From: a virus | Lineage: Duplodnaviria > Caudoviricetes | Direction: 5' to 3' (one strand) | Length of the DNA stretch: 63,905 nucleotides | Virus record (IMG/VR): IMGVR_UViG_3300023180_000052 | Span: 1 to 63,905 of that record | In this document: one piece after another, positions 2,233 to 27,138 of the stretch | Layout: the number at the start of each line of letters is the position of its first letter | Numbering within the stretch: the stretch's first letter is position 1 | The notes under the pieces: generated by a model | What the model was told of the DNA's origin: nothing | Seen by the model: the letters and a program-made list of their open reading frames with translations, nothing else | Databases searched by the model: none | Translations under genes and position numbers: made by a program

Positions 2233-3612
2233 ATGATGCACCACAAATACTCATCAAATTCACTAGATTTAGACTTATATGAGGGACTTCCATCTTTCCA
2301 CAGAGGGCTTGATAATCTTGCTGAGGATATTGGGGATATGTCGCTTTGGGTGGTTAAGAGAAATAAGCGTGAGTGGTCGCAGATAGCTTCAACAATCGGG
2401 CGAATGATGGCTATAAATGAGGCTGTCGGGGCGGACTTAAAAGTTTCCGAAACTCTTGAAGACCACTCTAATAGGACTGCTATAGAAGTCCTCAAAGGGC
2501 TTAGGAAATTGTTAGACCCAAGAGTGCTACTTTCGAGCTTCGGTTCAGAAGATGAATTTGTAAAGTACGTTCAAAAAAACGAGAGTGAACTGAAGCCTCT
2601 TATCGGCTTTCAGACCTACAATGCTACAGGTCTGAGATTGATCTCAAAGTTTAGGTCAATGTTTTTTAATCAGTATGCCTTAAAAATCTTAGTGACGGCT
2701 CTTGACGAGGACTTTGAATGGAACGAAGAAGAGTATGCTTGGAGCATTGATGTAGAAGATGAAGTCACTCGTTTGTTCAAAAAGTACACTAAGAATTTTC
2801 TTCGCAGAGTTGTTGGGAGTACTACTGACGAAAGAATGGAAAGTGTCAAAGGCTTGATAGAAGATGCGTTTAAAGATGCGTTAGCAGACCCTACGTTAAA
2901 TGCTGTTTCTGAGGAGGTTAAAGCTTCTATTAAGGAGAAGTTCTCGCAGAAAGTACTTTATGCTATGCGAGACGTGATTGTTGTCGATACCGTCACAGAG
3001 GATTCTCCATTAGTTGCTCAGTTCTTTGAATATATGATTAAGTTTAATGTGGGCATATTTGACTCTATTAGTGGCTTCTCAACAGAAGTTGGTGAGACTC
3101 AGCAAGTCATCTCTAAAGTTATTTGGAGTAGCCTTGCTGAGTACATTTCTTCTAGTCCTAAAAATCTTGCTAAGTTCAAGAAATGGCTTAAGACCGTTGT
3201 GAGATACAATATCAGTCAGATTGATAATTCTGAAGCAGAAGCTGGTTTAACGAGAGCAGTACATGACCATTACGCTAATACGAGCAAGGGGAAGTTGCCT
3301 GCTACTATCTTTGAAGAAGCTGAAAACGCTTATCGCTTGTTCATAGGTCGTAAATCAAACCAAGCAACTAAGTCTATCCTAAAAGGTAAATTAGGTAGTG
3401 AATTCTTAGAGGGCACTCTAAGAAGGGAACCGAAAATAAACGAGGTTGTTTCTGATGTGTATGAATACGCAAAAGAAGAGTTGATGAGAGCGTTCCGTTT
3501 CAAAGCGTATGTGGAGGACATTGGGGAACTCATTTCAGATAAACCTAAATATAACACAGAAAGACTGTATGAGGAGTTCATGGCTGAACTTTCGATTGAA
3601 GGTATCTATTGA
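2233..3612 (+). CDS. Hypothetical protein (459 aa, helical)
   Basis: Long ORF preceded by the recurrent upstream motif; no family recognised. Confidence 0.7.
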   Translation: MMHHKYSSNSLDLDLYEGLPSFHRGLDNLAEDIGDMSLWVVKRNKREWSQIASTIGRMMAINEAVGADLKVSETLEDHSNRTAIEVLKGLRKLLDPRVLLSSFGSEDEFVKYVQKNESELKPLIGFQTYNATGLRLISKFRSMFFNQYALKILVTALDEDFEWNEEEYAWSIDVEDEVTRLFKKYTKNFLRRVVGSTTDERMESVKGLIEDAFKDALADPTLNAVSEEVKASIKEKFSQKVLYAMRDVIVVDTVTEDSPLVAQFFEYMIKFNVGIFDSISGFSTEVGETQQVISKVIWSSLAEYISSSPKNLAKFKKWLKTVVRYNISQIDNSEAEAGLTRAVHDHYANTSKGKLPATIFEEAENAYRLFIGRKSNQATKSILKGKLGSEFLEGTLRREPKINEVVSDVYEYAKEELMRAFRFKAYVEDIGELISDKPKYNTERLYEEFMAELSIEGIY

Positions 3613-3696
3613 GGGTGTCTTTTGAGAAGATAGTCGTGTTTTCTTAAGATTCTGATATGTAGTACACAAAGAAAGTCTCTGCGAAAGGAGAACAAC

Positions 3697-5766
3697 GTGT
3701 ACTGCGTAGCAAAAGTCTTAGGGCAGATATTTGCCAACCCTCCATTTTATGTGCTTCGGTGTCTTGTGTCTCATGGAGACGAGACTACTTCTTCAGTCGT
3801 TAAGGGCAAGATAGCAGGTCCTGTCGGCAGAGGGACTGTCTTTACTTTTAAGGGTAAGAAAACCTTCGACAAGGAAGGTCGTCCTGCCATTGAAATAGAT
3901 CGTACTCCGATTAACCCTAAATTCTTACAGGGGAACTCTCTCACGCAGTGGGCTGATTGGTCTGACCCTTCTGTGCAGGAAAGCATTGAAATATTCGCTA
4001 CGCTTGCTGAGTCGGGAGCTAATGTTTCGGTGCTAAACTCCCTGTGGAGAGAGGTCAGTCAGAACCCTCAGATTATTTCCAAGAACCCTTGGTTTCTAGT
4101 CCAAAAAGGTCTGACCTTCAAGGTCGCAGATAACATAGCCCAACGACTAATAGGTGACTTTGAGCCTGCTTGTAAAGAGCGTGTATCAGCATCAATCTTA
4201 TGGTCACTAAAACAAGCTACAGCACAGGGTCACTGCTATCTCGATTCCACCACGACATTTCGAGATGCTTCTATCTTGACAGGTATTTCTGAAGTGCGAG
4301 AAATAGCTGAAGTGGTCAAGCAACTCAAAGAAGATGGGAGCTTGGTAGTAGACAAGATAGGAGGTAAGAACGCTCTCTACTTACCCTCAATACATAAGAT
4401 GGAAACGGAAGTGTCAGAATATCTCATGTCTGTTGAAAGAGATACAAACTCCGACTCCCTATACGAGGAAATAAAAGATGAGGAAATAACCAAGTTATCA
4501 AGGTTTACTCTGACTGAGGAACAGATCAGAGCAGTAAAGCAAGGTTTGATTGAACCTGCGAGTATTGTGACAGGGTTGCCTGGCACAGGGAAAACTACGA
4601 TTCTGAACACTCTCTGTAAGGCTCTGATTGAAAGGAAAGAGAAGATACTTTTAGTTGCTCCTACAGGGATTGCCGCTAAGCGTGTTTCAAGTCTTACAGG
4701 TATTGAAGCAATGACTATCCACCGAGCTTTCGGTGCAGGTATGCCCGATGATGATAAAAAAGAGAAGTCGGACTATGAGGGTATTAAGAAGTCTGAGGAC
4801 GATAGCTTGTCTACTAAAGCCGAGTCGGACAGACATAAAGAGCATTGGAAATACAACCCACATAACCCTCGACCCGAAAGCGTAGTCATCATAGACGAAG
4901 CGAGTATGGTGGACTTACACTTAATGTGGAGATTGCTAAGGGGTATTTCACCCTCTTGTCGTGTTGTTATGGTTGGAGACATAGCACAGCTTCCCCCTGT
5001 CGGAGCAGGGTTCGCTTTACAGGAAATCATCGAGTCTGAAGCTCTTCCTCGTATTCACCTAGACACCATTTTCCGACAAGGTGAGGGAAGTGGTGTGGTG
5101 AAAGCCGCCCATAAGATTCACGCAGGGGAAATACCAAACGAAGAGGGTGAATATGAAATGGTTGATAGATACACAAAGTTTGATGTCCTCGATTTCATCT
5201 TGGAGAAATGCAAAGAGCTTCAACTTGACGGAGTGGATTTCCATGTGATGAGTCCCACACATCATGGAGTATTAGGTGTGACTAATCTAAATAGGGAGCT
5301 AAGGTCTGTTTTGAACCCCAACGCTTTGGGTCACAGATCAGTCAAGGTAGGAAATGATGAAGTTCGTATTGGTGATCGAGTGATGTTCACTAAGAATGAT
5401 TATGATCTTGAAGTGTTCAATGGCGATGTTGGTGTGATTCATCACATTTCAGGTAGTGACGTTGAGGTGCTGATTAAAGGAGGAAATAGTCAGCTTGTGA
5501 GCTTGCCTATAGAGAGGGTGGGTAGCCTTCTCAGATTAGCCTATGCGACAACTGTCCATAAGGCACAGGGGCAGGAATACCATACGATTCTTATGCCTAT
5601 GTCATGCGATCATGGGGCGAACTTGCTCCAAAGAAGTTTACTCTATACGGCTGTGACAAGAGCGAAAGAAAAAGTGTACTTGGTAGGAGAGAGAGACGCT
5701 GTAGCTATTTCCGTATCGAATGTGTCTTCTGATAATCTTATGTGCGGCTTACACTCACGTTTCTGA
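3697..5766 (+). CDS. recD2: RecD2-like SF1B helicase
   Basis: Walker A GLPGTGKT, APTGIAAKR, TIHR, IIDEASMVD, GDIAQLPPVG, NGDVG, AYATTVHKAQGQE, LLYTAVTRA; N-terminal NPW/FKVAD region of RecD2/TraA. Confidence 0.92.
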   Translation: MYCVAKVLGQIFANPPFYVLRCLVSHGDETTSSVVKGKIAGPVGRGTVFTFKGKKTFDKEGRPAIEIDRTPINPKFLQGNSLTQWADWSDPSVQESIEIFATLAESGANVSVLNSLWREVSQNPQIISKNPWFLVQKGLTFKVADNIAQRLIGDFEPACKERVSASILWSLKQATAQGHCYLDSTTTFRDASILTGISEVREIAEVVKQLKEDGSLVVDKIGGKNALYLPSIHKMETEVSEYLMSVERDTNSDSLYEEIKDEEITKLSRFTLTEEQIRAVKQGLIEPASIVTGLPGTGKTTILNTLCKALIERKEKILLVAPTGIAAKRVSSLTGIEAMTIHRAFGAGMPDDDKKEKSDYEGIKKSEDDSLSTKAESDRHKEHWKYNPHNPRPESVVIIDEASMVDLHLMWRLLRGISPSCRVVMVGDIAQLPPVGAGFALQEIIESEALPRIHLDTIFRQGEGSGVVKAAHKIHAGEIPNEEGEYEMVDRYTKFDVLDFILEKCKELQLDGVDFHVMSPTHHGVLGVTNLNRELRSVLNPNALGHRSVKVGNDEVRIGDRVMFTKNDYDLEVFNGDVGVIHHISGSDVEVLIKGGNSQLVSLPIERVGSLLRLAYATTVHKAQGQEYHTILMPMSCDHGANLLQRSLLYTAVTRAKEKVYLVGERDAVAISVSNVSSDNLMCGLHSRF

Positions 5767-6170: not shown

Positions 6171-6925
6171 GCGTGGACTTGAAATATATAGAGAGCATAT
6201 ACAAACAGCTTTCTAAAATGGACGTTGAGTTAGACCCCGACCCGATTGAGTTTGGACCGTCTAGGTTAAATAATAAGACGGCTGAGTCGAGGAAATATCT
6301 GTCTCAGACTGAGAAGGTTTTTTTGCAGGTTTCTCAGAACCTTCACAAGTACAAGCGAGACTTACTTGTGGCTGAAACTCAGTATAATCTTGAGCAAACT
6401 CGACTCATGGCAGAAGACCCTCATGTACGGCAAGGTCGCTCACAGCAAGAGCGAGAAGCGTTAGCGTCAACTCAGCTCGTACATATTCAGTCTAAGATTA
6501 ATGAGTGTCGTCTTGCCGTACATGACCTTGAAGACGTACTGAAAGTAATCAAAGCCAAGCGTACTGACCTCAAAGATTTACAAGGTCGTATTCGAGATCA
6601 GTTGAAGCTATGTCAAGAGCAGATCGCTCTTGGTCAGCGTTGGGGTCAGAAGATTGATAAGAATGTCTTTGGGGACGTTATTTCTGTTGATGACTTTGAG
6701 ACAGAATCAGATGTACTCATTAAGGCAGACGCTTCATTGAGAAATGACACTCAAGATTTTGTCGATGATCTTTTGAGTGAAGCTACGGGTGAGGAGATTA
6801 TTTCTGAGCCTGCTCAAACTTCAAGTGAGGAAATAGATACATTTCTTTCTTCTCCATTAGAGCGTGTAGATCACGCTAAGATCGAGGAATTTGACCTTGA
6901 TTCTCTCCTTGACGACTTTTCTTAA
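6167..6925 (+). CDS. Coiled-coil protein with acidic tail, possibly a recombination mediator
   Basis: Helical heptads, C-terminus EEFDLDSLLDDFS, located between helicase and SSB-like gene; function is inference. Confidence 0.45.
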   Translation: MSVDLKYIESIYKQLSKMDVELDPDPIEFGPSRLNNKTAESRKYLSQTEKVFLQVSQNLHKYKRDLLVAETQYNLEQTRLMAEDPHVRQGRSQQEREALASTQLVHIQSKINECRLAVHDLEDVLKVIKAKRTDLKDLQGRIRDQLKLCQEQIALGQRWGQKIDKNVFGDVISVDDFETESDVLIKADASLRNDTQDFVDDLLSEATGEEIISEPAQTSSEEIDTFLSSPLERVDHAKIEEFDLDSLLDDFS

Positions 6926-7060
6926 AAAAAGTGAAAAAAATTCGTCAGAACCTTTTCCTTTCCTATATACACTAACTGAGCAAAGGCAAATCACTTCGGA
7001 AGAACGCCCAAGCTCTTTCTCTTAAACAGCCGAAAGGCACAACAAACAAAGGAGTCCCAC

Positions 7061-7762
7061 ATGAGTGGTTTCTCAGATTTTTCTCTCGGTGGCAGTAGCC
7101 CAATTCTTTCAGCAGGCAAGGCTCGTTGGAAGCCACAAAAGGGCAAGTATCGTGTGTCCTTCATCGCATTACCAGGTCTTGAGAACGGCAACCCCGATCT
7201 TGACGCAGATGCACCCTCATTCAAAGGTGGTCGCAGACTTTATCAAAAGGGTGTTGGTTATTTCTTAGATCATGGACCTGAGTATCAGAAGATTGCAGGT
7301 GGACCTTCAAAGACAGCGATTGCTACCACCCTTTGCTTTTGGCCTGTTGATGCGAATGGTATGCTCGACAAGACCCGTCTTGGAAATGGCGAGTTTGAGA
7401 TCAAGACTTGGGTGTTCTCACTCGACAAGTATCGTCAGCTTGAGGCTATCCACGCTGAGTTCCCTCTGACTAAGCATGACCTTAATGTGGTTGTGACAGA
7501 CCCACAGTATCACAAGATGACTTTCAGTCCTTGTCGTGACTCTCTTCTCGTCACTCTGAAAGACAAGAAGACTGATCTGTTCAACAGCGTTGTTGATGTT
7601 GCTAAGGGAGTTCATGCAAATCTGCAAAATGATATTGCACAGGACTTGACCCTCGATCAGATTCGTGAGAAGCTCTCAGGTGAAGTTGGTTCTCCCGTTG
7701 GAAATAGTTCAATGTCATCTAACTTAGACGTTGATGATGTACTTGATGATGTTCTTGGGTAA
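7061..7762 (+). CDS. Probable single-stranded DNA-binding protein (gp32-like)
   Basis: Aromatic/beta-rich core, acidic tail LDVDDVLDDVLG, strong RBS, own terminator, replication context. Confidence 0.6.
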   Translation: MSGFSDFSLGGSSPILSAGKARWKPQKGKYRVSFIALPGLENGNPDLDADAPSFKGGRRLYQKGVGYFLDHGPEYQKIAGGPSKTAIATTLCFWPVDANGMLDKTRLGNGEFEIKTWVFSLDKYRQLEAIHAEFPLTKHDLNVVVTDPQYHKMTFSPCRDSLLVTLKDKKTDLFNSVVDVAKGVHANLQNDIAQDLTLDQIREKLSGEVGSPVGNSSMSSNLDVDDVLDDVLG

Positions 7763-7783
7763 GAGTTAGCGTGTAGTTGTTAG

Positions 7784-7860
7784 ATTGACTCCTTCGGGAG
7801 TTGGTTGATGTGTAGTAGAAGCCCTCATTAAGTTCGTCTTGGTGGGGGCTTCTGTTATTT
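7784..7860 (+). terminator. Two hairpins after the SSB-like gene (C-UUCG-G loop, then a 16-bp stem with U-rich tail)
   Basis: attgactcc-ttcg-ggagttggt (7784-7805); agaagccctcattaag/cttggtgggggcttct (7817-7853) followed by gttattt. Confidence 0.7.
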
Positions 7861-7904
7861 CTTTATATCTCCCTTGTTTTATATTAAGACAAAGGAGATA
7901 CGAC

Positions 7905-8432
7905 ATGAGTGACTTTTGGGACAGCATTAGCTTCGGCAGTGTGAAAACGGCTAGTATGGACGAGGTTCTGAATACTAAGATTTCAGACCTCACCGATTAT
8001 GGTCGTAAGGTGCATAAGGATACCTCTTCATTTACTGATGGTATGAGGGTCTACGCTACAACGAATAACGGTCTTCTAATTCCTAATACCCTCCCCTCAG
8101 CAGGCTCAAAGGGAACGGTTGTTTCTGTACGGACAGCTTCGGGTGATGTGACCTCTATGGAAGGTGAGGTTTTTGTTCAATGGGACGGTAGGGGAAATAA
8201 GATTGATCGAGTTCCCGTAGATTTCATTAGATTGGCTAGTATGCGAGTCGCTAACCTTGACAACTTCATTGTCTTATCAGGTCCTTCCCTAACTATCCCC
8301 AACTCTACACAGGGGACAGGTGAGCTAGTTCATAAGTCTACTAAAGACCTTTGGTCTGTTAAAGTGGGTGAAGACGGCTCATACGAAATAGAGAGACTTT
8401 TTGATGACAATGGAGAACCTCTGAAGGTTTGA
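7905..8432 (+). CDS. Hypothetical, probable virion protein
   Basis: AAGGAG RBS before ATG 7905; contains KTAS, RTAS, RLAS, RVAN motifs. Confidence 0.65.
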   Translation: MSDFWDSISFGSVKTASMDEVLNTKISDLTDYGRKVHKDTSSFTDGMRVYATTNNGLLIPNTLPSAGSKGTVVSVRTASGDVTSMEGEVFVQWDGRGNKIDRVPVDFIRLASMRVANLDNFIVLSGPSLTIPNSTQGTGELVHKSTKDLWSVKVGEDGSYEIERLFDDNGEPLKV

Positions 8433-8435
8433 GTC

Positions 8436-8594
8436 ATGTCTCGTTCAGAGATAGAAATATGCCCTTGTTGCGAAGCTGAAATAGAGTGCGATTGCATACC
8501 TAGATGCCTAAAGGGAGAACATGAGCATGAATGTTTCTACTGCCAAGAAACATTAGATGAGGAAGACGAAGAAGGGGCAGAAGGCGATGACTAG
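8436..8594 (+). CDS. Small Cys-rich, acidic-tailed protein (52 aa; absent from the ORF track)
   Basis: Hand translation MSRSEIEICPCCEAEIECDCIPRCLKGEHEHECFYCQETLDEEDEEGAEGDD; fills the gap between flanking genes. Confidence 0.55.
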   Translation: MSRSEIEICPCCEAEIECDCIPRCLKGEHEHECFYCQETLDEEDEEGAEGDD

Positions 8595-8811
8595 ATTTAT
8601 TTTAATATTTACGATGACCCTCCTCGCTTCTTGTGACGATACGGATTCTCCAAACACAAAGACTCTTTGCGAGCAAGTCGCAGATAAGATTTCTGAGTGT
8701 GTGGGGGGTCGAATTCCCCAATTGAACTCTTGTAGCCAACCTATTTCTGAGCAAATCCTTTCTTCTAGTTGTGAAGACGTTCTGAGGCTCATTCGTGGAG
8801 AGGAGCTTTGA
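8587..8811 (+). CDS. Small lipoprotein
   Basis: MTRFILIFTMTLLASC lipobox plus four further Cys. Confidence 0.7.
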   Translation: MTRFILIFTMTLLASCDDTDSPNTKTLCEQVADKISECVGGRIPQLNSCSQPISEQILSSSCEDVLRLIRGEEL

Positions 8812-9702
8812 ATGTCACACAAGAAGAAGCCTTTCTATGACATAGAAATGAAGGAAAGATACCTAGCGATAGTCTTATTAGACATCATAGGTTCTACGGC
8901 TTTCGTTCAAAAGGTCGGTGCGAGAACAGCGGCTCAATGGTTTCAAGTGCATGACCGTCTCGCTCGCAGTCTTTGCTATAAGTTTAATGGTAGAGAAATA
9001 GATAGGTCCGATGGTTTTCTCTTATCTTTTGAGACAGTTCTTGACGCTGTGAACTTTGCTCTGAAATACCAAAAGACGATTCCTCCTAAAATCAAGCTTC
9101 AGACTAGGATTGGAATCCATTGGGGGAAGATCATAGAGGTGAAGCAAGATGACTTGTTTGTAGGGGTAGGAGCAAAGCGTGTCGAACTTGAGGGTCTTGC
9201 TAAGAATATAGCCGCTCGTACTATGAGCCTTTGCCAAGCAGGACAAGTCTTACTCACTAAAGAAGCTATGCAGATAGTGAAGCATAGGGTTAATATACAT
9301 ACTCCCAAAAGCACTCGATACGTCTGCGTAGGTATGTATAAGTTTAAGGGCGTTAGAGATCCTCAAGAGGTGTATGCCGTAGGTGAAACCATTGAGTCAC
9401 TCCAACCTCCTCCTGGTTCAGATAAAGTAAAGAGACTAGGAGGTCCGAAATACATCAAGTCAAGAATTAGGGATAGAAAGTTCAAAGAGTGGTTTTGGTG
9501 GTTTGTATGGAGGGCAGGAATCTTATCATTTCTATTATGGTCTTGGATTTTAATACCAATGATCTTTTCCCCAACAGGCAGGTACTTGTTAGGTTTGCCT
9601 TACTCTATGCCTTGGTTAGATGCCATCGGTGATTTCTTTATTTACTTCTTTGAAATAGTTAAAGATGCTTTTGAAGTAGTTAAGAAAGATTTAGAACCAT
9701 GA
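8812..9702 (+). CDS. Class III nucleotidyl cyclase with C-terminal membrane segment
   Basis: LLDIIGST and SDG metal-binding Asp, RIGIHWG, NIAAR, GQVLLT, FKGV; hydrophobic stretch after the domain. Confidence 0.88.
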   Translation: MSHKKKPFYDIEMKERYLAIVLLDIIGSTAFVQKVGARTAAQWFQVHDRLARSLCYKFNGREIDRSDGFLLSFETVLDAVNFALKYQKTIPPKIKLQTRIGIHWGKIIEVKQDDLFVGVGAKRVELEGLAKNIAARTMSLCQAGQVLLTKEAMQIVKHRVNIHTPKSTRYVCVGMYKFKGVRDPQEVYAVGETIESLQPPPGSDKVKRLGGPKYIKSRIRDRKFKEWFWWFVWRAGILSFLLWSWILIPMIFSPTGRYLLGLPYSMPWLDAIGDFFIYFFEIVKDAFEVVKKDLEP

Positions 9703-10220
9703 ATGATCTGACAAACAAACAGTTTACCAAGAGTGATAAAGCCAAACGTGGTTGGTGGGCTTCTGTCGTCTTTATGTTAATGATTTGTGAGCTTATCTAT
9801 TTCTTATCTACTACGAAGATAGTAGAAGAAAACCGAGACATACTTATAGGTATTATAGGTATGTTGACGGGTTCTATTTCTAGTATGTTGGCGATAGCTA
9901 GTGGGCGTGACCCTTCAGAAGTAGAGGAGCTGAAGGATAAGCTTGCTAGTGCAAACGCAGACCGAGAAGCCTTGATAGGTAGACTCCGAGACGCTCAGAT
10001 TCAAATGCAGTTATTGAGACAGCAGATATTTGAGCTTCAAAGTGCTGTGATTGAAAAGCTCTCTGTATTTCATGGGAGTAGTCCTATTAGGACAATGGAC
10101 GAAGATTCGGTTATTCTCCCTAAAGTAGTCGATCAATGGACTCCTAAGAAAGAGGAAGTCCCTCCTGTTCAAGAGACACCATTTCCTTCTAAGCCTGAAG
10201 ACTCTAAGAAAAAGAAATAG
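9699..10220 (+). CDS. Two-TM protein with coiled coil
   Basis: Two hydrophobic helices then heptad repeats; ATGA overlap with the cyclase. Confidence 0.7.
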   Translation: MNDLTNKQFTKSDKAKRGWWASVVFMLMICELIYFLSTTKIVEENRDILIGIIGMLTGSISSMLAIASGRDPSEVEELKDKLASANADREALIGRLRDAQIQMQLLRQQIFELQSAVIEKLSVFHGSSPIRTMDEDSVILPKVVDQWTPKKEEVPPVQETPFPSKPEDSKKKK

Positions 10221-10229
10221 GTATTAGCT

Positions 10230-11450
10230 ATGGACATCTTTGATAAGATCGCTTCTGAGTATATAAAAGAAGCTCGTATTCCGTCAGCAGGAAATATCAA
10301 ACGAGTGACAAACCCCAAGAAGCCTTGGCATAAGACCAAGAATAATTGCCTTCCTAGAACCAAAGAAAACTGTGGTGTTTGGACTCAGAAAGAAGTCGAT
10401 CAGAAATACGAGGAGTGGAAGAACCAAAAGAATATAGGTGACGGTTTGTGGACTTGGCAGAAATACGAGGGTGCTATGTCACCTGGTTCTCAAGGTCTTA
10501 GCCAAGAGAGAATTAATAAGAATCTTCAGGAAATAGAGGGTTTCGCTAATAAAAAAGAGAACCAATTTACAGTTGGAGACAAGGTTAATCGCTTCTTTGG
10601 GAAGAAGAAGAAAGTCGAAGACTTTACAAAACTTAATCGTGGTATCGGTGGAGATGGCGACCCTCGTAAGAAGAAGAAACGACAAGAACTAAAGAAGAAG
10701 AAGGAAATGAAAAAGCAGAACAAGAAAGCATCTGCAATAAGAGTAGCGAGTCTCTATCTTCAAGGTATGAGCATGACTAAAGAGGGTGCTTGGGCAGGGG
10801 GTAGCTATGGAGGAACTCTGTCTCCTGTCACTACTGAGCCAGGGGAGGGTTATAAGATTGTACGTTCGGGGGGTACTTTGCATGGTTGGGATAAGTACGT
10901 TCAACTAGTAGCAGAACATTACGCAAGTCTTCCTAGCTACACCTCAGAGGGTGAGAAGTCTTTTGTCGCTCTTAAGGGGCATATCATTACGATGTTCCAA
11001 AGGCAGAACAGTAAGATTGATGTTGTCTTTGTAGATTACGACCCCTACTCAAGTGCTGAGGAAATGAGAGAAGACGTACTCAAGAACAATGTTCTAAAGA
11101 TTACTGAACTTTACAACCAAGACGCTTGGTTTGGACCTGACGTAAACTTAATGCTGAGAGCTGTTCACGATTTCCAAGCTCACTTGGGTGCGAACCCTAA
11201 GAACAAGCCAAAGAGCTTTGGTATGAAAGGTGAACTTCAAGCTTATAACAAGCACATGAATCTAGTAGGTAAGACTAGTAAAGCTGTGCCTGCTCTGTTT
11301 ATCGAGATTATCGGTCAAGCGGCTCACTTTTGGTACTATGGAGAATTCCCCGATCAGAAGATTGCTTCTATGGGGGATAAGTTTGATATGGTCAGACTTG
11401 GAAATGTAAAAGGGTACGAGATTGTAAATGGTGACTTGGTTAAGGTCTAG
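10230..11450 (+). CDS. Multi-segment protein with possible metal-binding C-terminal domain
   Basis: Basic N-terminal half, KKASAIRVASLYL junction, then LRAVHDFQAH..GE motif. Confidence 0.6.
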   Translation: MDIFDKIASEYIKEARIPSAGNIKRVTNPKKPWHKTKNNCLPRTKENCGVWTQKEVDQKYEEWKNQKNIGDGLWTWQKYEGAMSPGSQGLSQERINKNLQEIEGFANKKENQFTVGDKVNRFFGKKKKVEDFTKLNRGIGGDGDPRKKKKRQELKKKKEMKKQNKKASAIRVASLYLQGMSMTKEGAWAGGSYGGTLSPVTTEPGEGYKIVRSGGTLHGWDKYVQLVAEHYASLPSYTSEGEKSFVALKGHIITMFQRQNSKIDVVFVDYDPYSSAEEMREDVLKNNVLKITELYNQDAWFGPDVNLMLRAVHDFQAHLGANPKNKPKSFGMKGELQAYNKHMNLVGKTSKAVPALFIEIIGQAAHFWYYGEFPDQKIASMGDKFDMVRLGNVKGYEIVNGDLVKV

Positions 11451-11851
11451 TTGTATAGCTTATAGACCTCTATATCAACTTCACCATTTCCATGACTTGC
11501 TTTGCGTACAGAGAACTGAATAAGTCTAAGTTTAGTCCATTCGTAAATCACTTCTTCTGTAGGCTTTTTCAGTTGGTAGCCTTTCTCAAAGTTGTAGGTA
11601 CTGACCTTCACTAATCTCTTTGATTCGTCATAAGTGCATTTGTGAATCTGAGCAACAGGGACAATGTGTCTAACTTCTGTTCTGATGAAGCGTACTTCCC
11701 TAGTAGGATAGTTGCACCCTTTAGAGAGAGGGAGCGACCATACCACAGTTTTTATTTTCTGTGGCGTAGATAGAAATAAGACTGAAGTGATAGTAATGGC
11801 GAGGGTTAACATCAATTTGGTTGTGTGTTCTTGAGTCATAAGGTAGGTCAC
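11447..11851 (-). CDS. Hypothetical exported or membrane-anchored protein
   Basis: N-terminal hydrophobic helix; GAAAGGA RBS on the minus strand. Confidence 0.6.
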   Translation of the reverse strand: MTYLMTQEHTTKLMLTLAITITSVLFLSTPQKIKTVVWSLPLSKGCNYPTREVRFIRTEVRHIVPVAQIHKCTYDESKRLVKVSTYNFEKGYQLKKPTEEVIYEWTKLRLIQFSVRKASHGNGEVDIEVYKLYN

Positions 11852-11905
11852 TTTCCTTTCGGTTTGGGTATAAGCTATACCTCACATACTTCAAGGAGAT
11901 TGTAA

Positions 11906-12658
11906 ATGTCAGTGGACTTCTTAGACAGGAAAGTCGATATATTTAATGACGGTATCGGAGGGGTTGCACTCATTCAGAGTATGGGTGATGACTTGACTAT
12001 CGTAAATGCTGCGAGAGCAAGTCTCGATCAGATTTCAACAGAAATGGGAGAGCGAGAAGAGAGGCTTTCAAACTTCTTAATTCGCTCAGGTCACACCTCC
12101 ACAACAGAACATAATGTAATCACTTTTTGGATTAAAGTTCCTATGTTCGTAGCTCGTCAGCAGATGAGACATAGGACTTTTTCTTATAACGAGATTTCTC
12201 GCAGATATACCTCAGAGAAGTTAGAGTTTTACTTGCCTCAAGAAATGAGGAAGCAAGACGAGAAGAACAGGCAGGCGAGCTTAGATGAAACCTTCAATCC
12301 TACGATTGAGTATGACCCTTATGACTATCCTAAGTTCTTAAAGTTAGACGCTGTGTCTGCAATCAAGAACCATGTTAGTGACTCAGTAAGGCTCTATAAT
12401 CAGATGATTGATAAGGGTGTTGCAAGAGAGCAGGCTCGTATGGTCTTGCCTCAGAATATCTATACTACTTATTGGGCAACAGGCTCACTTCACAATTGGG
12501 TGAACAGCTTCATTTCCAAGCGAGATCACGAAGATGCTCAATGGGAAATCAAGCTCCTAGCTCGTGAGATAAGCCGTCAGATCGCTGAGGTATGGCCTCT
12601 TGCCCACGCTAACTTTGTGAAGCATGGGAAGATACCTGCCTTAGATTCTGAAATATGA
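11906..12658 (+). CDS. thyX: Flavin-dependent thymidylate synthase
   Basis: RQQMRHRTFSYNEISRRY signature, AREQARMVLP, AQWEI. Confidence 0.96.
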   Translation: MSVDFLDRKVDIFNDGIGGVALIQSMGDDLTIVNAARASLDQISTEMGEREERLSNFLIRSGHTSTTEHNVITFWIKVPMFVARQQMRHRTFSYNEISRRYTSEKLEFYLPQEMRKQDEKNRQASLDETFNPTIEYDPYDYPKFLKLDAVSAIKNHVSDSVRLYNQMIDKGVAREQARMVLPQNIYTTYWATGSLHNWVNSFISKRDHEDAQWEIKLLAREISRQIAEVWPLAHANFVKHGKIPALDSEI

Positions 12659-24018: not shown

Positions 24019-27000
24019 ATGAGTTTTTCCTCTTTAGCTATTTCAGCGAGTGCGAGGGCAGGAAAGCAGTCAGAAAAGAACGCAGATATTATCGAGTTCG
24101 TGGAAGCCCCTTGGGGCTTGAAGATGAAGCTATTTCCTGTTCAGCGAGTGATCTTAAAAGTTCACTACGGGCTTGAATTAGATGATACCAAGACCTTTGA
24201 AATATCTGATTGGCGAAGGCAGAACGTAGAAGTACATACTGAAAAATCTTATCTCAAGAAACTTTATGACGAAGGTCGGTGCAACGTAGGTGAGGTAATC
24301 CCTGGCAAACAACGTAGGGAAATGATCTTGTCAATCGGTAGACGTTCGGGGAAATGCGTCACAGGAGACACTCTTGTCACTACAGATAGAGGACTCGTCA
24401 GAATAGATTCTTTAGGTGATGTGAATGGGGCTGAGTTTCAGCCTCTTTCTGTGTCCGTTACTCAAGAGGGAGGTCGAGTTTCAAGGTCTGCTTATTTCTA
24501 TAATGGTGGTGTTCGTCAGACGAAGTACTTTAGAACCAAGTCGGGATATGACCTTGAGGGAACAGGCAACCATCGAGTGAAAGTCCTTACTCCCGAATGT
24601 GAGATCAAGTGGAAGTTTCTCCAAGATATTTCTGAAGGAGATATGGTTGGTATCAACAGGAGCAATAACCTATTTCCTTATAACTACTTATGTCTCAGCA
24701 AGTATAAAGAGGGACTCACTGACCAAGAACATCTCCCTAACTACTTAGACGAGAAATGGGGTCAGCTTCTAGGTATTTTAGTGGGTGACGGCTTATGGAC
24801 AGAACATAGATGCGTTAAAGTTTCTGTGGGGGAAAGTGGCTTTGACAACTACCTAGTTAACTTCTTTAAGAGTTTGTTTAAAAGAGTCTCTTACTACCCT
24901 GACTTGAGAACCGAAAATGCAGGGTCTGTAGTAGCAAATGGTTCATATAACCGACTTTTCTTAGACCGACTAGGTTGGGTTATAGATGTCACTTCTAGCA
25001 CGAAAGAAATACCTCATTCAATCAAGGCTTCTCCTGCTTTAGTTCAGATGGCATTTCTGAGAGGGTTATTTGAGACAGATGGCTGTGTTTCAGGGCCGAA
25101 GATAGCTTTCAGCACAGTGTCGTCAGAGTTGGCTCGTCAAGTTCAAGTGATGTTGTTAAACTTAGGGATTACTTCGAGCCGATCTGAGAGAGTGCGTTCT
25201 AAAAAGAACCACTCAAATGAGTTCGTTGTTTCTATTAAAGGCTCAAGGTCTAAGAGAACTTTTGCACAAAAGATCGGGTTTATTTCTGAGAGGAAAAAGA
25301 AGCTACTTCAAGAGCTAGTTTCGACCCTCACATATCGGGAGTCGAGAGAGGGCGTTCCGTTCTTCCTAGACCTCTTGAAGAAAGAGGGTTTGAACCTTTA
25401 CTCTTATGATAAGAACACCATTCCTTATTGGAAGCTCAAGGAAATCCTTCCTCAGCTTAGGGGTGAGATCAGACAGAAATGTGAAACGCTAATAGACGCT
25501 GACTACTACTTTGACCCTGTAGTTGAAGTGAGGGATTCTGAGAATCGGGTGTATGACTTGAATGTGCCTGATGGTTCGAGCTTCTTGGCGAATGGCTTCA
25601 CTAACCACAACACGACTATTTCTGCGTGTATTGCGGCTTATGAGACGTACAAACTCATCAAGAAACAAGACCCTCAGAAATACTACGGACTTCCTGCGAG
25701 CAATAACATTCAGATCATTTCGGTGGCGACAGATAAAGACCAAGCAGGGTTGCTCTATCAAGAAGTGTCGGGTCACTATCGCAACTGTTCTTTCTTCGGT
25801 CCATACACAGCGAATAATACTCTGAGCTATGCTCGATTTCAGACCCCTGCCGATGTTGAAAAGTACGGTAGGTACATTGAGAATTCGAGTGCGAAAGCAA
25901 CGCTCAAAGTCACCTTCAGATCATGTGTCGCTAAGGGTCTTCGTGGTGCAGGTAATATATGCGTTATTCTTGACGAGGTTGCTCACTTTACAGAGTCGGG
26001 TCAATCGGGTGCTGAGGAAGTGTATAACGCTGTTGTGCCTTCGACCTCAGCATATTCACCGAAAGACCCCGACAACCCTACTGTTCCTATTGGAGAAGTA
26101 GAGGGTCGTGTTATTCTCATTTCTTCGCCACTAGGTAAACAGGGTCTGTTCTATAATCTATTTCAGATCGGTATGCGAGGAGGTAAAGCGAGCGAGAATA
26201 TCCTTGCCGTTCAAGCTCCTACTTGGGAAGTAAACCCCACCGTCCCTGCTGAGGAATTCGAGAAGCATTATCTTAAAAATGCGGCTGTCTTCTTTACGGA
26301 GTATGGTGGCGAGTTTACAGATCGTACTAGGGGTTGGATTGAAAAGTCTGAGGACTTGTTTGCCTGCGTTGATGTCGGTCTTAGAGCAAAACAGAAAGCT
26401 CCTGCGAGGAAACCTCATTTCATGGGGATTGACTTGGGTCTTGTAGGTGACGGCACAGCGATAGCAATCGGGCATCTTGAGGAAGATAAGATTGTTGTGG
26501 ACTTGGTGACACAGATCAAAGCAGGTGAGGGAGAGTATGCTGAAAAAGATCGCTTAGACTTTGATGATGTAGCTGATTGGATTCTTGAAATGACCAAGAA
26601 GTTCTATGTGGTTGAGGGTATCTTTGACCAATGGGCAGGTATCCCCTTAGAGCAAGCGTTGTCGAAGCGTGGTTTAGGTCAGATGAAATCGGTGCAGATG
26701 ACGAAGCAGTTGACCTCTCAGATTTTCCAAAACTTTAAGGACATGATGTGGGACGAAAGGCTTGGTTTATATGACCGACCTAACCCTGAAGAAGATGGAC
26801 ATGAGCCTTACATACAAGAGCTTTTAGAGCTTCAAGCGAAGGTTCAGAGTAAACACCTCATTACTGTAGAAGCACCACAAGTACAGGGCAAACATGACGA
26901 TATGTCAGACGCATTAACTCGTATGATTTGGATAGCTTCTCAGCAGATAGGGAAGCAGAGGTATTTCGCAGGAGGTTCGGGTAGATCATCAATGGGCAAC

Positions 27001-27138
27001 TATTCTAGTGGGAAAGGCTTTGCAGGAGGCACAAGACTTAGAGGAGGCTCAGACCCTCGTAGAATTGCTCCCCGAACGACAAACCGATCTGACAAACACA
27101 GCATAAGAAATCGAATCTTAGGAAATAAAAAGAGGTAA
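24019..27138 (+). CDS. terL: Terminase large subunit (intein-containing)
   Basis: Spliced Walker A GRRSGK/T, Walker B ILDEVAHF, ISSP, nuclease GIDLG..D and HDDMSDA. Confidence 0.92.
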   Translation: MSFSSLAISASARAGKQSEKNADIIEFVEAPWGLKMKLFPVQRVILKVHYGLELDDTKTFEISDWRRQNVEVHTEKSYLKKLYDEGRCNVGEVIPGKQRREMILSIGRRSGKCVTGDTLVTTDRGLVRIDSLGDVNGAEFQPLSVSVTQEGGRVSRSAYFYNGGVRQTKYFRTKSGYDLEGTGNHRVKVLTPECEIKWKFLQDISEGDMVGINRSNNLFPYNYLCLSKYKEGLTDQEHLPNYLDEKWGQLLGILVGDGLWTEHRCVKVSVGESGFDNYLVNFFKSLFKRVSYYPDLRTENAGSVVANGSYNRLFLDRLGWVIDVTSSTKEIPHSIKASPALVQMAFLRGLFETDGCVSGPKIAFSTVSSELARQVQVMLLNLGITSSRSERVRSKKNHSNEFVVSIKGSRSKRTFAQKIGFISERKKKLLQELVSTLTYRESREGVPFFLDLLKKEGLNLYSYDKNTIPYWKLKEILPQLRGEIRQKCETLIDADYYFDPVVEVRDSENRVYDLNVPDGSSFLANGFTNHNTTISACIAAYETYKLIKKQDPQKYYGLPASNNIQIISVATDKDQAGLLYQEVSGHYRNCSFFGPYTANNTLSYARFQTPADVEKYGRYIENSSAKATLKVTFRSCVAKGLRGAGNICVILDEVAHFTESGQSGAEEVYNAVVPSTSAYSPKDPDNPTVPIGEVEGRVILISSPLGKQGLFYNLFQIGMRGGKASENILAVQAPTWEVNPTVPAEEFEKHYLKNAAVFFTEYGGEFTDRTRGWIEKSEDLFACVDVGLRAKQKAPARKPHFMGIDLGLVGDGTAIAIGHLEEDKIVVDLVTQIKAGEGEYAEKDRLDFDDVADWILEMTKKFYVVEGIFDQWAGIPLEQALSKRGLGQMKSVQMTKQLTSQIFQNFKDMMWDERLGLYDRPNPEEDGHEPYIQELLELQAKVQSKHLITVEAPQVQGKHDDMSDALTRMIWIASQQIGKQRYFAGGSGRSSMGNYSSGKGFAGGTRLRGGSDPRRIAPRTTNRSDKHSIRNRILGNKKR
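24355..25611 (+). mobile_element. Intein (419 aa) with LAGLIDADG homing endonuclease
   Basis: Starts CVTGDTLV, block B TGNH, LLGILVGDG and FLRGLFETDG, VYDLNV, ends THN-like NHN followed by Thr. Confidence 0.95.

Follow-up and report, generated by a model that had tools for sequence, protein, structure and literature searches.

In Pycsar systems, the class III-type cyclase PycC is encoded next to a transmembrane (TM) or TIR effector, and the cyclic nucleotides of host defences are known targets of phages, which degrade or sequester them. A cyclase domain of the same subtype as that described below is found in the NCBIfam family TIGR04510 (mod_pep_cyc, 'putative peptide modification system cyclase', length 814), the genomic neighbourhood of which presumably includes a modified-peptide precursor, going by the family name only; a search of the literature for this family, or for a phage class III cyclase with a two-TM partner, returned nothing. 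The nearest solved structures are those of Rv1900c (LipJ; 1ybt, 1ybu) and Ma1120 (4wp8 and others), at E values of 2.6e-07 by sequence and 5e-12 by fold. XC_0250 of Xanthomonas campestris combines a class III cyclase domain (1-220) with subsequent TPR repeats and is reported to make cGMP, not cAMP, in vitro (EMBO J 2013, PMC3770947). The conserved gene pair described here, as judged from its sequence, most likely provides a phage-made source of cyclic nucleotide in the inner membrane, together with a protein to which this source is coupled and whose family is associated with lysis.

The window analysed, a stretch of 63,905 nucleotides, is an IMG/VR phage record (IMGVR_UViG_3300023180_000052) rated approximately 20% complete by CheckV. 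The record and the terminase, portal and protease genes on board bear out the phage origin assumed in the preliminary description. The phage is an uncultured giant phage, and the source was a salt marsh. The four abutting or overlapping genes are present on one strand at exactly the positions first described (Table 1): the stop codon of the lipoprotein gene directly abuts the start of the cyclase, the stop of which is overlapped by 4 nt by the start of the gene for the two-TM coiled-coil protein, given the working name tm2. Between the terminator-like hairpin upstream of these genes and position 12000, no further terminator-like sites were found on the plus strand. The neighbours of the cyclase-tm2 pair in the window are nucleotide-metabolism and replication genes (helicase, ThyX); there is no adjacent endolysin, and family profile searches gave no lysis-family match among these neighbours. 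Contigs from two RNA libraries run from the lipoprotein gene into that of the cyclase (8689-9258) and from the cyclase gene into tm2 (9387-9731), which is a weak sign of expression, as carry-over of DNA is possible. The cover of the RNA libraries is patchy, positions 9926-10233 for instance being bare, and such gaps do not indicate silence.

Table 1. Positions of the features of the cyclase locus within the window.
Feature	Position	Strand	Basis or remark
Terminator-like hairpin, 20-pair stem then T run	7813..7857	+	May mark upstream limit of transcription unit
Cys-rich peptide ORF, 52 aa, 8 Cys, acidic tail; rare accessory	8436..8594	+	ORF list
Small lipoprotein, 84 aa (74 aa from ATG 8587), four further conserved Cys; accessory	8557..8811	+	Lipobox
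Tail-anchored class III nucleotidyl cyclase, 296 aa; core part	8812..9702	+	PF00211, TIGR04510, fold matches
Catalytic cyclase homology domain, residues 19-209, predicted cytoplasmic	8866..9438	+	Extent of TIGR04510 and PF00211 matches
Membrane-adjacent invariant linker, residues 197-215, LQPP..KVKRLGGPK.I	9400..9456	+	(Near-)invariant columns of cyclase alignment
Single C-terminal TM helix of cyclase, residues 228-256	9493..9579	+	Hydropathy, charge, AF2
tm2, two-TM coiled-coil partner, 173 aa; core part	9699..10220	+	Conservation, cyclase pairing, short homologues
Two TM helices of tm2, residues 17-43 and 46-70, short conserved loop between	9747..9908	+	Hydropathy, AF2
54-residue helix of tm2, residues 72-125, after invariant GRDPSE, predicted cytoplasmic	9912..10073	+	AF2, alignment

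The PF00211 profile matches residues 19-190 of the cyclase with 29.1 bits (E 9e-07), above the gathering cut-off of 21.9, and 767 relatives of the protein were found at E <= 0.001. The resemblance to TIGR04510 that was suggested in the preliminary description was confirmed by the HMM comparison: the cyclase part matches at 158.2 bits (E 3.4e-46), over profile positions 7-204 only, and EIDRSDGF and the G-A-K..E..G..K..AAR block are common to the two. The phage protein falls far below the 400-bit cut-off of this family, which is exceeded by two of the six cellular proteins scanned (L052, 433; L037, 419). Over the domain, its identity to eight cellular proteins with this subtype of cyclase is 30-35%, and a quick tree places 31 of its 32 phage rows in a group of their own, apart from 50 cellular rows. 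A Foldseek search with the AF2 model of the cyclase (pLDDT 79.9) gave 188 PDB matches at E <= 0.001, of which the top-ranked matches listed are cyclases; the first is Rv1900c (E 5.3e-12), and the TM-scores of Rv1900c and Ma1120 are 0.83-0.88 on the target. The same model has a helix at residues 219-252, where the TM helix is predicted with a hydropathy peak of 1.91; the flank preceding it carries 7 K/R vs 2 D/E and that following it 1 vs 1, and the tail of approximately 40 residues beyond is predicted to lie outside the cytoplasm. The linker ahead of this helix is retained in the divergent cyclase of locus L095 and partly in that of L122, and may be a contact site.

Catalytic positions were assigned through a HMMER alignment onto Rv1900c. 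In an alignment of 27 cyclase sequences D24, D64-F69, E125, E127, G128, K131, N132 and R136 are all invariant; these include the metal-binding pair D24 and D67, N132 and R136, so that the Asp pair and the NxAAR motif are kept just as was first reported. The second metal Asp can be regarded as intact because SDGF, within EIDRSDGF, is placed by HMMER over the GDGF of Rv1900c and Ma1120. The substitution of EIDRSDG for a Lys-containing motif, to which the preliminary description had also drawn attention, is equally real: D64 occupies a site where Lys is usual, and the purine-specifying positions are Asp64 and Glu125, an atypical combination from which the canonical pair is absent. Canonical purine pairs are Lys/Asp for ATP and of the Glu/Cys type for GTP. 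As Asp64 and Glu125 are both carboxylates, the Lys/Asp adenine pattern is disfavoured and GTP would suit the site better.

The cyclase looks active. The alternative is that the domain lacks catalytic activity, or that its product is not a cyclic mononucleotide, its role at the membrane being structural or that of a binding module. The non-canonical specificity positions D64 and E125 would fit such a role, as would the residues found at the Asn position elsewhere: Pro in all eight aligned cellular forms of the same subtype, where the phage cyclase has Asn, and Ala in the cyclase of L122. Against this stands the invariance of the metal Asp pair, Asn and Arg throughout the 27 sequences, and both Asn and Arg are also present in L095, a fast-evolving branch in which the position of Glu125 is Asn. 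Furthermore XC_0250, itself a class III cyclase with TPR repeats, has activity in vitro; the published report gives Leu and Ala where Asn and Arg would stand, and its metal Asp residues, D41 and D71, lie 30 apart (PMC3770947). On balance, only a slim probability is attached to this alternative. Compared by these reported residues only, the phage cyclase differs in having Asn and Arg, and in Asp residues that are 43 apart; because residues and spacing differ, and the reported numbers have no simple mapping to this domain, cGMP is only a lead for the phage product.

The cyclase is closely associated with tm2. Of the 80 viral loci recovered with tm2, 78 also carry the cyclase; the two genes are directly adjacent (gap <= 200 nt) in 73 and separated by 1.5-3.2 kb of other genes in five. 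Conversely, 17 of 18 loci seeded with the cyclase contain tm2, the remaining one ending inside the cyclase. Hence the co-conservation of the cyclase and the two-TM gene is upheld, and the four-gene operon as a unit is not, since only these two genes form a conserved pair. In 14 tm2-seeded loci the cyclase is down to 38-47% identity and tm2 is still at 66-85%, and in one locus (L015) the order of the pair is inverted. Third-codon identity is 44-52%, near saturation, against protein identities of 64-86% for tm2 and 39-75% for the cyclase; as the proteins are conserved at this level of silent divergence, selection acts on protein, not on DNA. Four giant-phage records, the completeness ratings of which include one of 100% and one of 95%, each contain one tm2-family member, always beside the cyclase. 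The pair is abundant, with hundreds of protein clusters on contigs as long as approximately 375 kb, the samples being of salt-marsh, estuarine and marine origin, and has been seen in viral contigs only; the cellular relatives found are matches to the cyclase domain alone within proteins of 830-1457 aa. Searches of the cultured phages in INPHARED with 4.7 kb of DNA, the cyclase, tm2 (limit E 1) and two short relatives gave no match. The ESM Atlas returned only viral clusters without names, and a search of named entries gave no usable match. No fused cyclase-tm2 forms were found among tm2 relatives of 304-2000 aa, which is weak evidence, and predictions of a complex from the alignments of cyclase and tm2 gave 0.00 in both runs, a value that counts neither way on binding.

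The second member of the pair has 1441 relatives at E <= 0.001. The mean column identity of 22 tm2 sequences is 68%, and the helix at residues 72-125 is invariant at nearly every residue. AF2 places helices at residues 6-38, 46-67 and 72-125; hydropathy peaks at 1.83 and 2.09, and the N-terminal flank carries 5 K/R vs 2 D/E. As there are two TM helices and a positive N-terminal flank, the coiled coil is predicted to be cytoplasmic. Overall, conservation is much stronger in tm2 than in the cyclase. Were the cyclase the sole partner of tm2, this would be surprising, and it hints at another constraint, for example self-assembly or a host target.

A cyclase gene beside that of a small TM protein fits the logic of Pycsar, and a related proposal is that the locus acts in superinfection exclusion: the cyclase would sense a rival infection, its nucleotide would open tm2 as a membrane disruptor, and the lipoprotein would add envelope exclusion. 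In keeping with this, a lipoprotein of inner-membrane type adjoins the pair in some phages, and 18 of the 22 giant-phage tm2 sequences match the model SLATT_fungal, of the two-TM effector domain SLATT (PF18142), at E <= 0.1, the best at 0.0013. These SLATT matches all lie below the Pfam cut-off of 26.5 bits and come from sequences that are approximately 75% identical to each other, and SLATT is not among the top families of 19 short tm2 relatives; it is kept as a lead. The PADLOC HMM for PycC gives the phage cyclase just 14.9 bits (E 0.0033), with no stretch passing. Family profile searches identified no cNMP-binding or other nucleotide-sensing domain in tm2, and a CAP-type cNMP receptor (PF00027) is absent from five giant-phage records, a search for which the control matched 11 of 14 genomes. 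The analogy with Pycsar drawn at the outset is unsupported as a matter of membership, because PycC is matched only negligibly and the searches turned up no cNMP-binding domain; taking into account that the pair is seen in viral contigs only, a module of this kind appears very unlikely.

A different affinity for tm2 emerged from a profile search with its alignment, which gave 105 representatives, some of only 108-145 aa. These short forms are recovered by hmmsearch with the tm2 alignment at E values of 4e-15 to 1e-3, and a reverse profile built from them finds giant-phage tm2 at 1e-25 to 2e-27. The unannotated family phrog_9990 matches 14 of 19 short members, and the homology of tm2 to the phrog_9990-like proteins of small marine phages takes in both TM helices, the coiled coil and the turn G-[RK]-[DN]-P-[DSE]-E. 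Six of the seven small-phage loci examined have an M15 endolysin (phrog_894) within approximately 1 kb, and three of these six also have a three-TM holin (phrog_3427) nearby; a locus seeded by P0273 was left out of this set, as its identity of 28% is weak. No cyclase accompanies the tm2 relatives of small phages, two records of which have completeness ratings of 98% and 100%, nor those of two further phage records, 98 and 133 kb long. This implies that the tm2 family has a function that is independent of the cyclase. An endolysin of the PF08291 type is absent from four giant-phage records, the control search matching 3 of 14 genomes; a search for the PF11351 holin was uninformative, matching neither the giant-phage records nor the control genomes.

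It could be, then, that two independent functions share an operon, with tm2 acting as a holin, antiholin or other control of lysis, and the cyclase serving separately in host takeover by raising a second messenger of the host. The presence of short homologues in lysis cassettes that lack a cyclase fits this; each giant-phage record has a single tm2-family member, the conservation of tm2 does not follow the divergence of the cyclase, and in five loci the two are set apart by other genes, 1.5-3.2 kb in extent. Nevertheless, the linkage in 78 of 80 loci survives divergence of the cyclase to 38% as well as the inversion in L015, and is much tighter than that of other neighbours. Furthermore, few proteins of the region are as conserved as tm2, whereas lysis genes usually evolve fast. 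Separate functions appear rather unlikely.

The remaining two genes are associated with the pair far less regularly. The likelier start of the lipoprotein is the ATG at 8587, from which a signal peptide leads to the lipobox L-A-S-C, with Asp at +2. Homologues detected by tblastn, at 35-42% identity, are present in 13 of 18 cyclase-seeded and 21 of 80 tm2-seeded loci; among the loci read the Cys pattern is conserved, and Asp is found at +2 in the window and in three of seven relatives. By the E. coli rule, Asp at this position is a signal for retention in the inner membrane. The lipoprotein has no family match in Pfam, NCBIfam or PHROG; a resemblance to Rop (E 0.013) is below the cut-off and was dismissed. 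The Cys-rich peptide is matched by no family in the Pfam, NCBIfam, PADLOC and PHROG profiles and is not co-conserved with the cyclase: tblastn detected it in none of the 18 and none of the 80 loci. By eye, a Cys-rich ORF can be seen in three of 11 loci read, as a recognisable relative only in L010 and L019 and as a different ORF in L011. Consequently neither belongs to the unit in the way first supposed (0/80 for the peptide and 21/80 for the lipoprotein by tblastn), the lipoprotein being an occasional and the peptide a rare accessory.

That a lipoprotein and a coiled-coil membrane protein are encoded in the same cluster, and that tm2 has relatives within lysis cassettes, also raises the idea of a spanin pair split by an unrelated gene, in which the lipoprotein would be the outer-membrane subunit and tm2 the inner-membrane subunit with a periplasmic coiled coil. 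A lipobox scan of seven small-phage cassettes gave one candidate (L084), leaving six without a separate lipobox ORF, which could be taken in favour of such a pair; this result says little on spanins. However, tm2 has two TM helices where an inner-membrane spanin has one, and with its positive N-terminal flank the coiled coil is predicted to be cytoplasmic; its extreme conservation is not spanin-like; and the lipoprotein is detected by tblastn in just 21 of 80 tm2 loci, with an Asp at +2 that would mark it, on the E. coli rule, for the inner membrane. A spanin pair is extremely unlikely on account of the predicted topology of tm2 and the patchy distribution of the lipoprotein. The suggestion that the two-TM and lipoprotein genes might turn out to be holin and spanin has thus divided: short tm2-family members do sit between endolysin and holin, while its spanin half finds little favour.

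The domain identity of the cyclase, its intact catalytic residues, its near-obligate pairing with tm2 and the relationship between tm2 and proteins of lysis cassettes are established. We are roughly evenly divided as to whether cyclase and tm2 act together, tying a phage-made second messenger to the membrane and to late, lysis-type events. On this preferred reading, both proteins of the conserved unit would reside in the inner membrane of the host; their topology, product, physical contact and direction of control we infer as follows. The class III cyclase, presumably a homodimer, would be anchored by its single C-terminal helix with the catalytic domain facing the cytoplasm, where it would most likely convert a nucleoside triphosphate to a 3',5'-cyclic nucleotide. 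The phage would thereby probably make its own signal molecule at the host membrane. For its part, tm2 would form a two-helix hairpin with its long helix facing the cytoplasm as the catalytic domain does, having descended from the family kept in the lysis cassettes of small phages. Either tm2 would set cyclase activity by the state of the membrane or the cyclase would govern tm2, and the receptors that read the messenger may be those of the host or of an unknown kind. A more specific version, in which the two proteins form one membrane complex that acts as a cyclic-nucleotide switch on a holin-family protein, the messenger or the conformation of the cyclase timing the membrane breach or reporting the membrane state and so controlling lysis timing or inhibition, is quite unlikely; to our knowledge, control of lysis timing or inhibition by a second messenger has been described for no phage.

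If the preferred reading of a cyclase and tm2 acting together is true, a phage-made cyclic mononucleotide at the membrane with a dedicated partner from a lysis-associated family would represent a new layer of control over the infected cell. It would also offer a first approach to the function of the TIGR04510-type cyclase domain, whose Asp/Glu specificity positions are unusual, and of phrog_9990, an unannotated family of lysis-cassette membrane proteins. The pair comprises two small genes, and is cheaply testable.

Compared with known systems, the module resembles each in part. With Pycsar it shares a common logic, a cyclase gene beside that of a small membrane protein, but Pycsar sits in bacterial defence islands whereas the cyclase-tm2 module is phage-borne. 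Cellular forms of TIGR04510 have TPR or kinase regions following the cyclase domain, approximately 600 aa long or longer, where the phage cyclase instead stops at 296 aa with a TM helix. Rv1900c and Ma1120 have in common with the phage cyclase the xDGF second metal site, at an identity of just 21-24%, but occur in soluble or other domain contexts, with neither a C-terminal membrane anchor nor a tm2-like partner. Finally, the phrog_9990-like short forms are variable proteins of 108-145 aa beside endolysin and holin, without a cyclase; giant-phage tm2 is, by contrast, longer and almost invariant, with the cyclase alongside.

The pairing of the cyclase gene with that for a two-helix membrane protein, tm2, is much more constant than the association of either with its other neighbours. 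Of the 18 loci retrieved with the cyclase, 17 include tm2 and the eighteenth terminates within the cyclase gene; the order of the two genes is reversed in one (L015). In the best 80 of 243 confirmed loci retrieved with tm2, some of which share contigs with the cyclase-seeded set, the cyclase is found in 78, separated from tm2 by no more than 200 nt in 73 and by 1.5-3.2 kb in five. One of the two loci lacking it has just 106 nt of upstream DNA, and the other has 4 kb upstream that is free of a cyclase. Identity to the window's cyclase drops to 38-47% in 14 of the 78, while that to the window's tm2 is 66-85%. By tblastn, the lipoprotein was detected in 13 of the 18 cyclase-seeded loci and 21 of these best 80 tm2-seeded loci, and the Cys-rich peptide in none of either set; inspection of 11 loci by eye identified a recognisable relative of this peptide in two (L010 and L019), and L011 has a Cys-rich ORF of another kind. 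The lipoprotein retains four Cys residues beyond the lipid-bearing one, and its +2 residue is Asp in the window and Asp (three), Glu (two) or Ala (two) in the seven relatives read.

That the four genes abut or overlap, as stated in the preliminary description, was borne out by four ORFs on the same strand (see table). The lipoprotein is more likely to start at 8587; the signal peptide then ends L-A-S-C, with Asp-Asp next. A hairpin of 20 pairs with a T run, lying between the genes for the 233-aa and 197-aa proteins, is the sole plus-strand terminator-like site in 6800-12000, so the transcription unit may begin with the 197-aa gene and continue beyond tm2. As this hairpin covers the listed TTG start of the 197-aa gene, the true start may be further downstream. 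Contigs from two RNA libraries span 7943-8653, 8689-9258 (lipoprotein to cyclase) and 9387-9731 (cyclase to tm2), and hint weakly at expression, given that DNA may have been carried over into these libraries. The 406-aa gene just 3' of tm2 encodes a protein that is rich in Lys in its middle region and whose residues 224-383 match the unannotated phrog_3170; weak relatives of it follow tm2 only in L010 and L019.

Features of the window discussed in the text
Feature	Position	Strand	Source
233-aa gene	7061-7762
Hairpin with T run	7813-7857	+
197-aa gene (TTG start)	7839-8432
Cys-rich peptide, 52 aa, acidic tail	8436-8594	+	ORF listing
Lipoprotein, 84 aa	8557-8811	+	ORF listing
Cyclase, 296 aa	8812-9702	+	ORF listing
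tm2 membrane protein, 173 aa	9699-10220	+	ORF listing
406-aa gene	10230-11450
1039-aa ORF	24019-27138

Since relatives of these genes sit on viral contigs as long as 375,691 bases, the window, an entire IMG/VR virus record of 63,905 bases with a completeness of about 20% (CheckV), is a fragment of a giant phage. It encodes a Dda/exonuclease V-type helicase, a terminase, a portal, a head protease and ThyX, and no tRNA genes were found in it. The 1039-aa ORF is an unusually long or composite terminase: its matches to terminase large-subunit PHROGs are confined to residues 498-915 or so, and residues 1-424 match a family of unknown function (phrog_9666) and, weakly, a helicase family. Near-identical DNA was found in sequencing runs from salt marsh, estuary and marine samples, and no similar DNA or protein among 50,697 deposited phage genomes. 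The longest of the contigs with relatives, IMGVR_UViG_3300033182_000980 (classed as 'linear'), carries the cyclase at both of its ends, L012 and L018 (residues 15-295 at the start and 9-150 at the end); because the ends share approximately 400 nt, this genome is probably circular or complete.

The cyclase passes the cut-off of Pfam PF00211, and its best NCBIfam match is to TIGR04510 (E = 3.4e-46). The likeness to this family noted in the preliminary description holds for the domain but does not extend to membership, which was excluded because only positions 7-204 of the 814 in the profile are matched, with a score of 158 bits, far under the family cut-off of 400. The nearest solved structures are the cyclase domains of Rv1900c (LipJ) and Ma1120, both by sequence (E = 2.6e-07) and by fold (Foldseek E = 5e-12, TM 0.83-0.88 on target, using a model with a pLDDT of 79.9). 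As S-D-G-F of the phage enzyme falls on G-D-G-F of these two proteins in the HMMER alignment, the second metal-binding Asp, D67, is in place. In the same alignment, D64 occupies the site at which adenylate cyclases carry Lys, E125 the second base-specifying position, and N132 and R136 are the transition-state pair. Carboxylates at both base-specifying positions are at odds with the adenine pattern and would suit a hydrogen-bond-donating base, such as guanine. The residues D24, D64, D67, E125, N132 and R136, and the entire GREIDRSDGF block, are invariant among 27 relatives of 62-93% identity; that the domain is inactive, or acts otherwise, seems improbable. It is followed by an invariant linker, LQPP..KVKRLGGPK.I (residues 197-215), a basic stretch, a single strong hydrophobic helix (228-256) and a tail of about 40 residues. 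Because a bias towards K/R precedes the helix (seven against two D/E, compared to one against one after it), the catalytic domain is predicted to be cytoplasmic.

Searching protein collections with the cyclase gave 767 proteins with E ≤ 0.001 among 1550 candidates, and the 120 relatives listed are 63-93% identical and 238-303 aa in length. A scan of 185,579 species genomes identified 54 cellular loci with the cyclase-domain pattern, from Rubrivivax and other Burkholderiales, Lysobacteraceae/Xanthomonadaceae, Sumerlaeota and one Vicinamibacterales genome, all of which match the cyclase domain only (32-46% identity). Of 22 checked for length, three gave no start codon and one ORF (506 aa) runs off the end of its contig; the remaining 18 encode proteins of 833-1457 aa. 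When six of these proteins were scanned against TIGR04510, two exceeded the cut-off (433 and 419 bits) and one fell narrowly below it (395 bits); in the other three, the same cyclase domain is joined to a TPR or kinase body. One Rubrivivax MAG (contigs JANNQO01...) has at least eight loci of this subtype (L024, L026, L028, L032, L039, L045, L065 and L067), three of them on one 51-kb contig, so that paralogues have expanded greatly within a single cellular genome. EIDRSDGF, K122, E125, G128, K131 and R136 are common to the phage enzymes and eight aligned cellular sequences of the TIGR04510 subtype, whereas the latter have Pro at the site of N132.

A quick maximum-likelihood tree was built from 82 domain sequences (32 phage, 50 cellular), retained from 143 after dropping fragments, sequences with stops and those at least 90% identical to one kept. 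It places 31 of the 32 phage sequences in one group (support of 100) and the 50 cellular sequences on the opposite side; the tree is unrooted and the direction of transfer cannot be read from it. Most of the 14 divergent cyclases form one fast-evolving branch within the phage group; that of L095 retains the metal-binding Asp residues, Asn, Arg and the linker, with Asn replacing E125, and three tandem paralogous genes (2520-3976; 150, 161 and 170 aa) separate it from tm2. The remaining phage sequence, L122, lies between the two sides on a long branch and has Ala at the Asn position; upstream of its gene is a 353-aa ORF (1745-2806) with a long Glu-Pro-Lys-Pro repeat.

A short conserved loop connects the two hydrophobic helices of tm2 (17-43 and 46-70), and beyond them lie an invariant G-R-D-P-S-E, a helix of 54 residues (72-125) and a tail with little conservation (model pLDDT 65.5). 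Given the two transmembrane helices and a positive N-terminal flank (five K/R against two D/E), the long helix is expected on the cytoplasmic side, alongside the catalytic domain. This predicted topology, and the patchy occurrence of the lipoprotein across loci, make a split spanin pair highly improbable. Mean column identity is 68% across 22 sequences, with the long helix almost wholly invariant. It is the protein that is conserved: in codons for identical residues, third positions agree in only 44-52% of cases, as they also do in the cyclase. No family was matched above threshold by tm2, for which 1441 relatives were found at E ≤ 0.001. The SLATT_fungal two-helix effector model gave sub-threshold matches to 18 of the 22 sequences, which are close kin (best E = 0.0013), and for the short relatives of tm2 SLATT is not one of the top families. 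The Pycsar-like or exclusion module that had been proposed is quite unlikely, as the match to PycC is negligible and tm2 is without a sensing domain. One hit, P0280 (1156 aa), matches positions 55-104 of the tm2 profile in nine separate stretches, which may reflect either internal repeats or a coiled-coil artefact.

A profile of giant-phage tm2, searched against 1.84 billion representatives, gave 105 hits at E ≤ 0.001, many of them proteins of 108-145 aa with both helices, a G-[RK]-[DN]-P-x-E turn, a coiled coil and a V-I-D-K-L-S end. In reverse, a profile of 19 such short forms, 14 of which match the unannotated phrog_9990, recovers giant-phage tm2 (E = 1e-25 to 2e-27). With the short form P0281, 17 loci were retrieved from viral contigs of 20-69 kb; seven of these loci, from about three lineages, were examined. 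Six have an M15 endolysin (phrog_894, PF08291) no more than about 1 kb from the short tm2, and a holin with three transmembrane helices (phrog_3427, PF11351) is nearby in three of the seven, the order in L075 and L078 being endolysin, short tm2, holin; in the seventh, L084, the single neighbour tested had no lysis match. No cyclase was found within 6 kb in 20 loci (L074-L093), or anywhere in five whole records, two rated 98% and 100% complete. A 205-aa relative (L092 and L093, 6001-6636; 43% identical to tm2), encoded near dCMP deaminase and ThyX in two phage records (98 and 133 kb) that contain no cyclase, is intermediate between the lysis-cassette proteins and giant-phage tm2. Four giant-phage records (two rated 100% and 95% complete) have exactly one tm2-family member each, beside the cyclase. 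No PF08291 endolysin was found in four giant-phage records; the PF11351 holin search had no match in giant-phage records, nor in control genomes.

What is firm is the core of the cluster: a tail-anchored class III cyclase that looks active, and the near-invariant two-helix protein of a lysis-associated family that accompanies it. The two may work together at the inner membrane, with tm2 reporting the state of the membrane to the cyclase, or the cyclase governing tm2; a cyclic nucleotide made by the phage would thereby be linked to membrane events late in infection. We favour such joint action over the alternatives and give it an even chance. As no CAP-type cNMP-binding domain was detected in five giant-phage records (the control search was positive in 11 of 14 genomes), the signal would have to be read by a protein of the host or by an unknown fold. 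Joint action is countered by the higher conservation of tm2 than of its supposed partner, by the tm2 family clearly functioning elsewhere without a cyclase and, weakly, by the failure to find a fused form of the two proteins; that they have independent functions and share one operon is unlikely.

According to its published description (PMC3770947), XC_0250, in which TPR repeats accompany a class III cyclase domain, produces cGMP rather than cAMP; its metal-binding Asp residues are given as lying 30 positions apart, and Leu and Ala as taking the place of Asn and Arg. Because the residues named there do not map simply onto the phage domain, cGMP as the product of the phage enzyme would be only a lead. 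The literature searched contained nothing relevant to a tail-anchored cyclase that phages carry together with an obligate partner of a lysis-associated family; the enzyme family, and the logic of a cyclase plus a membrane protein, are already known.
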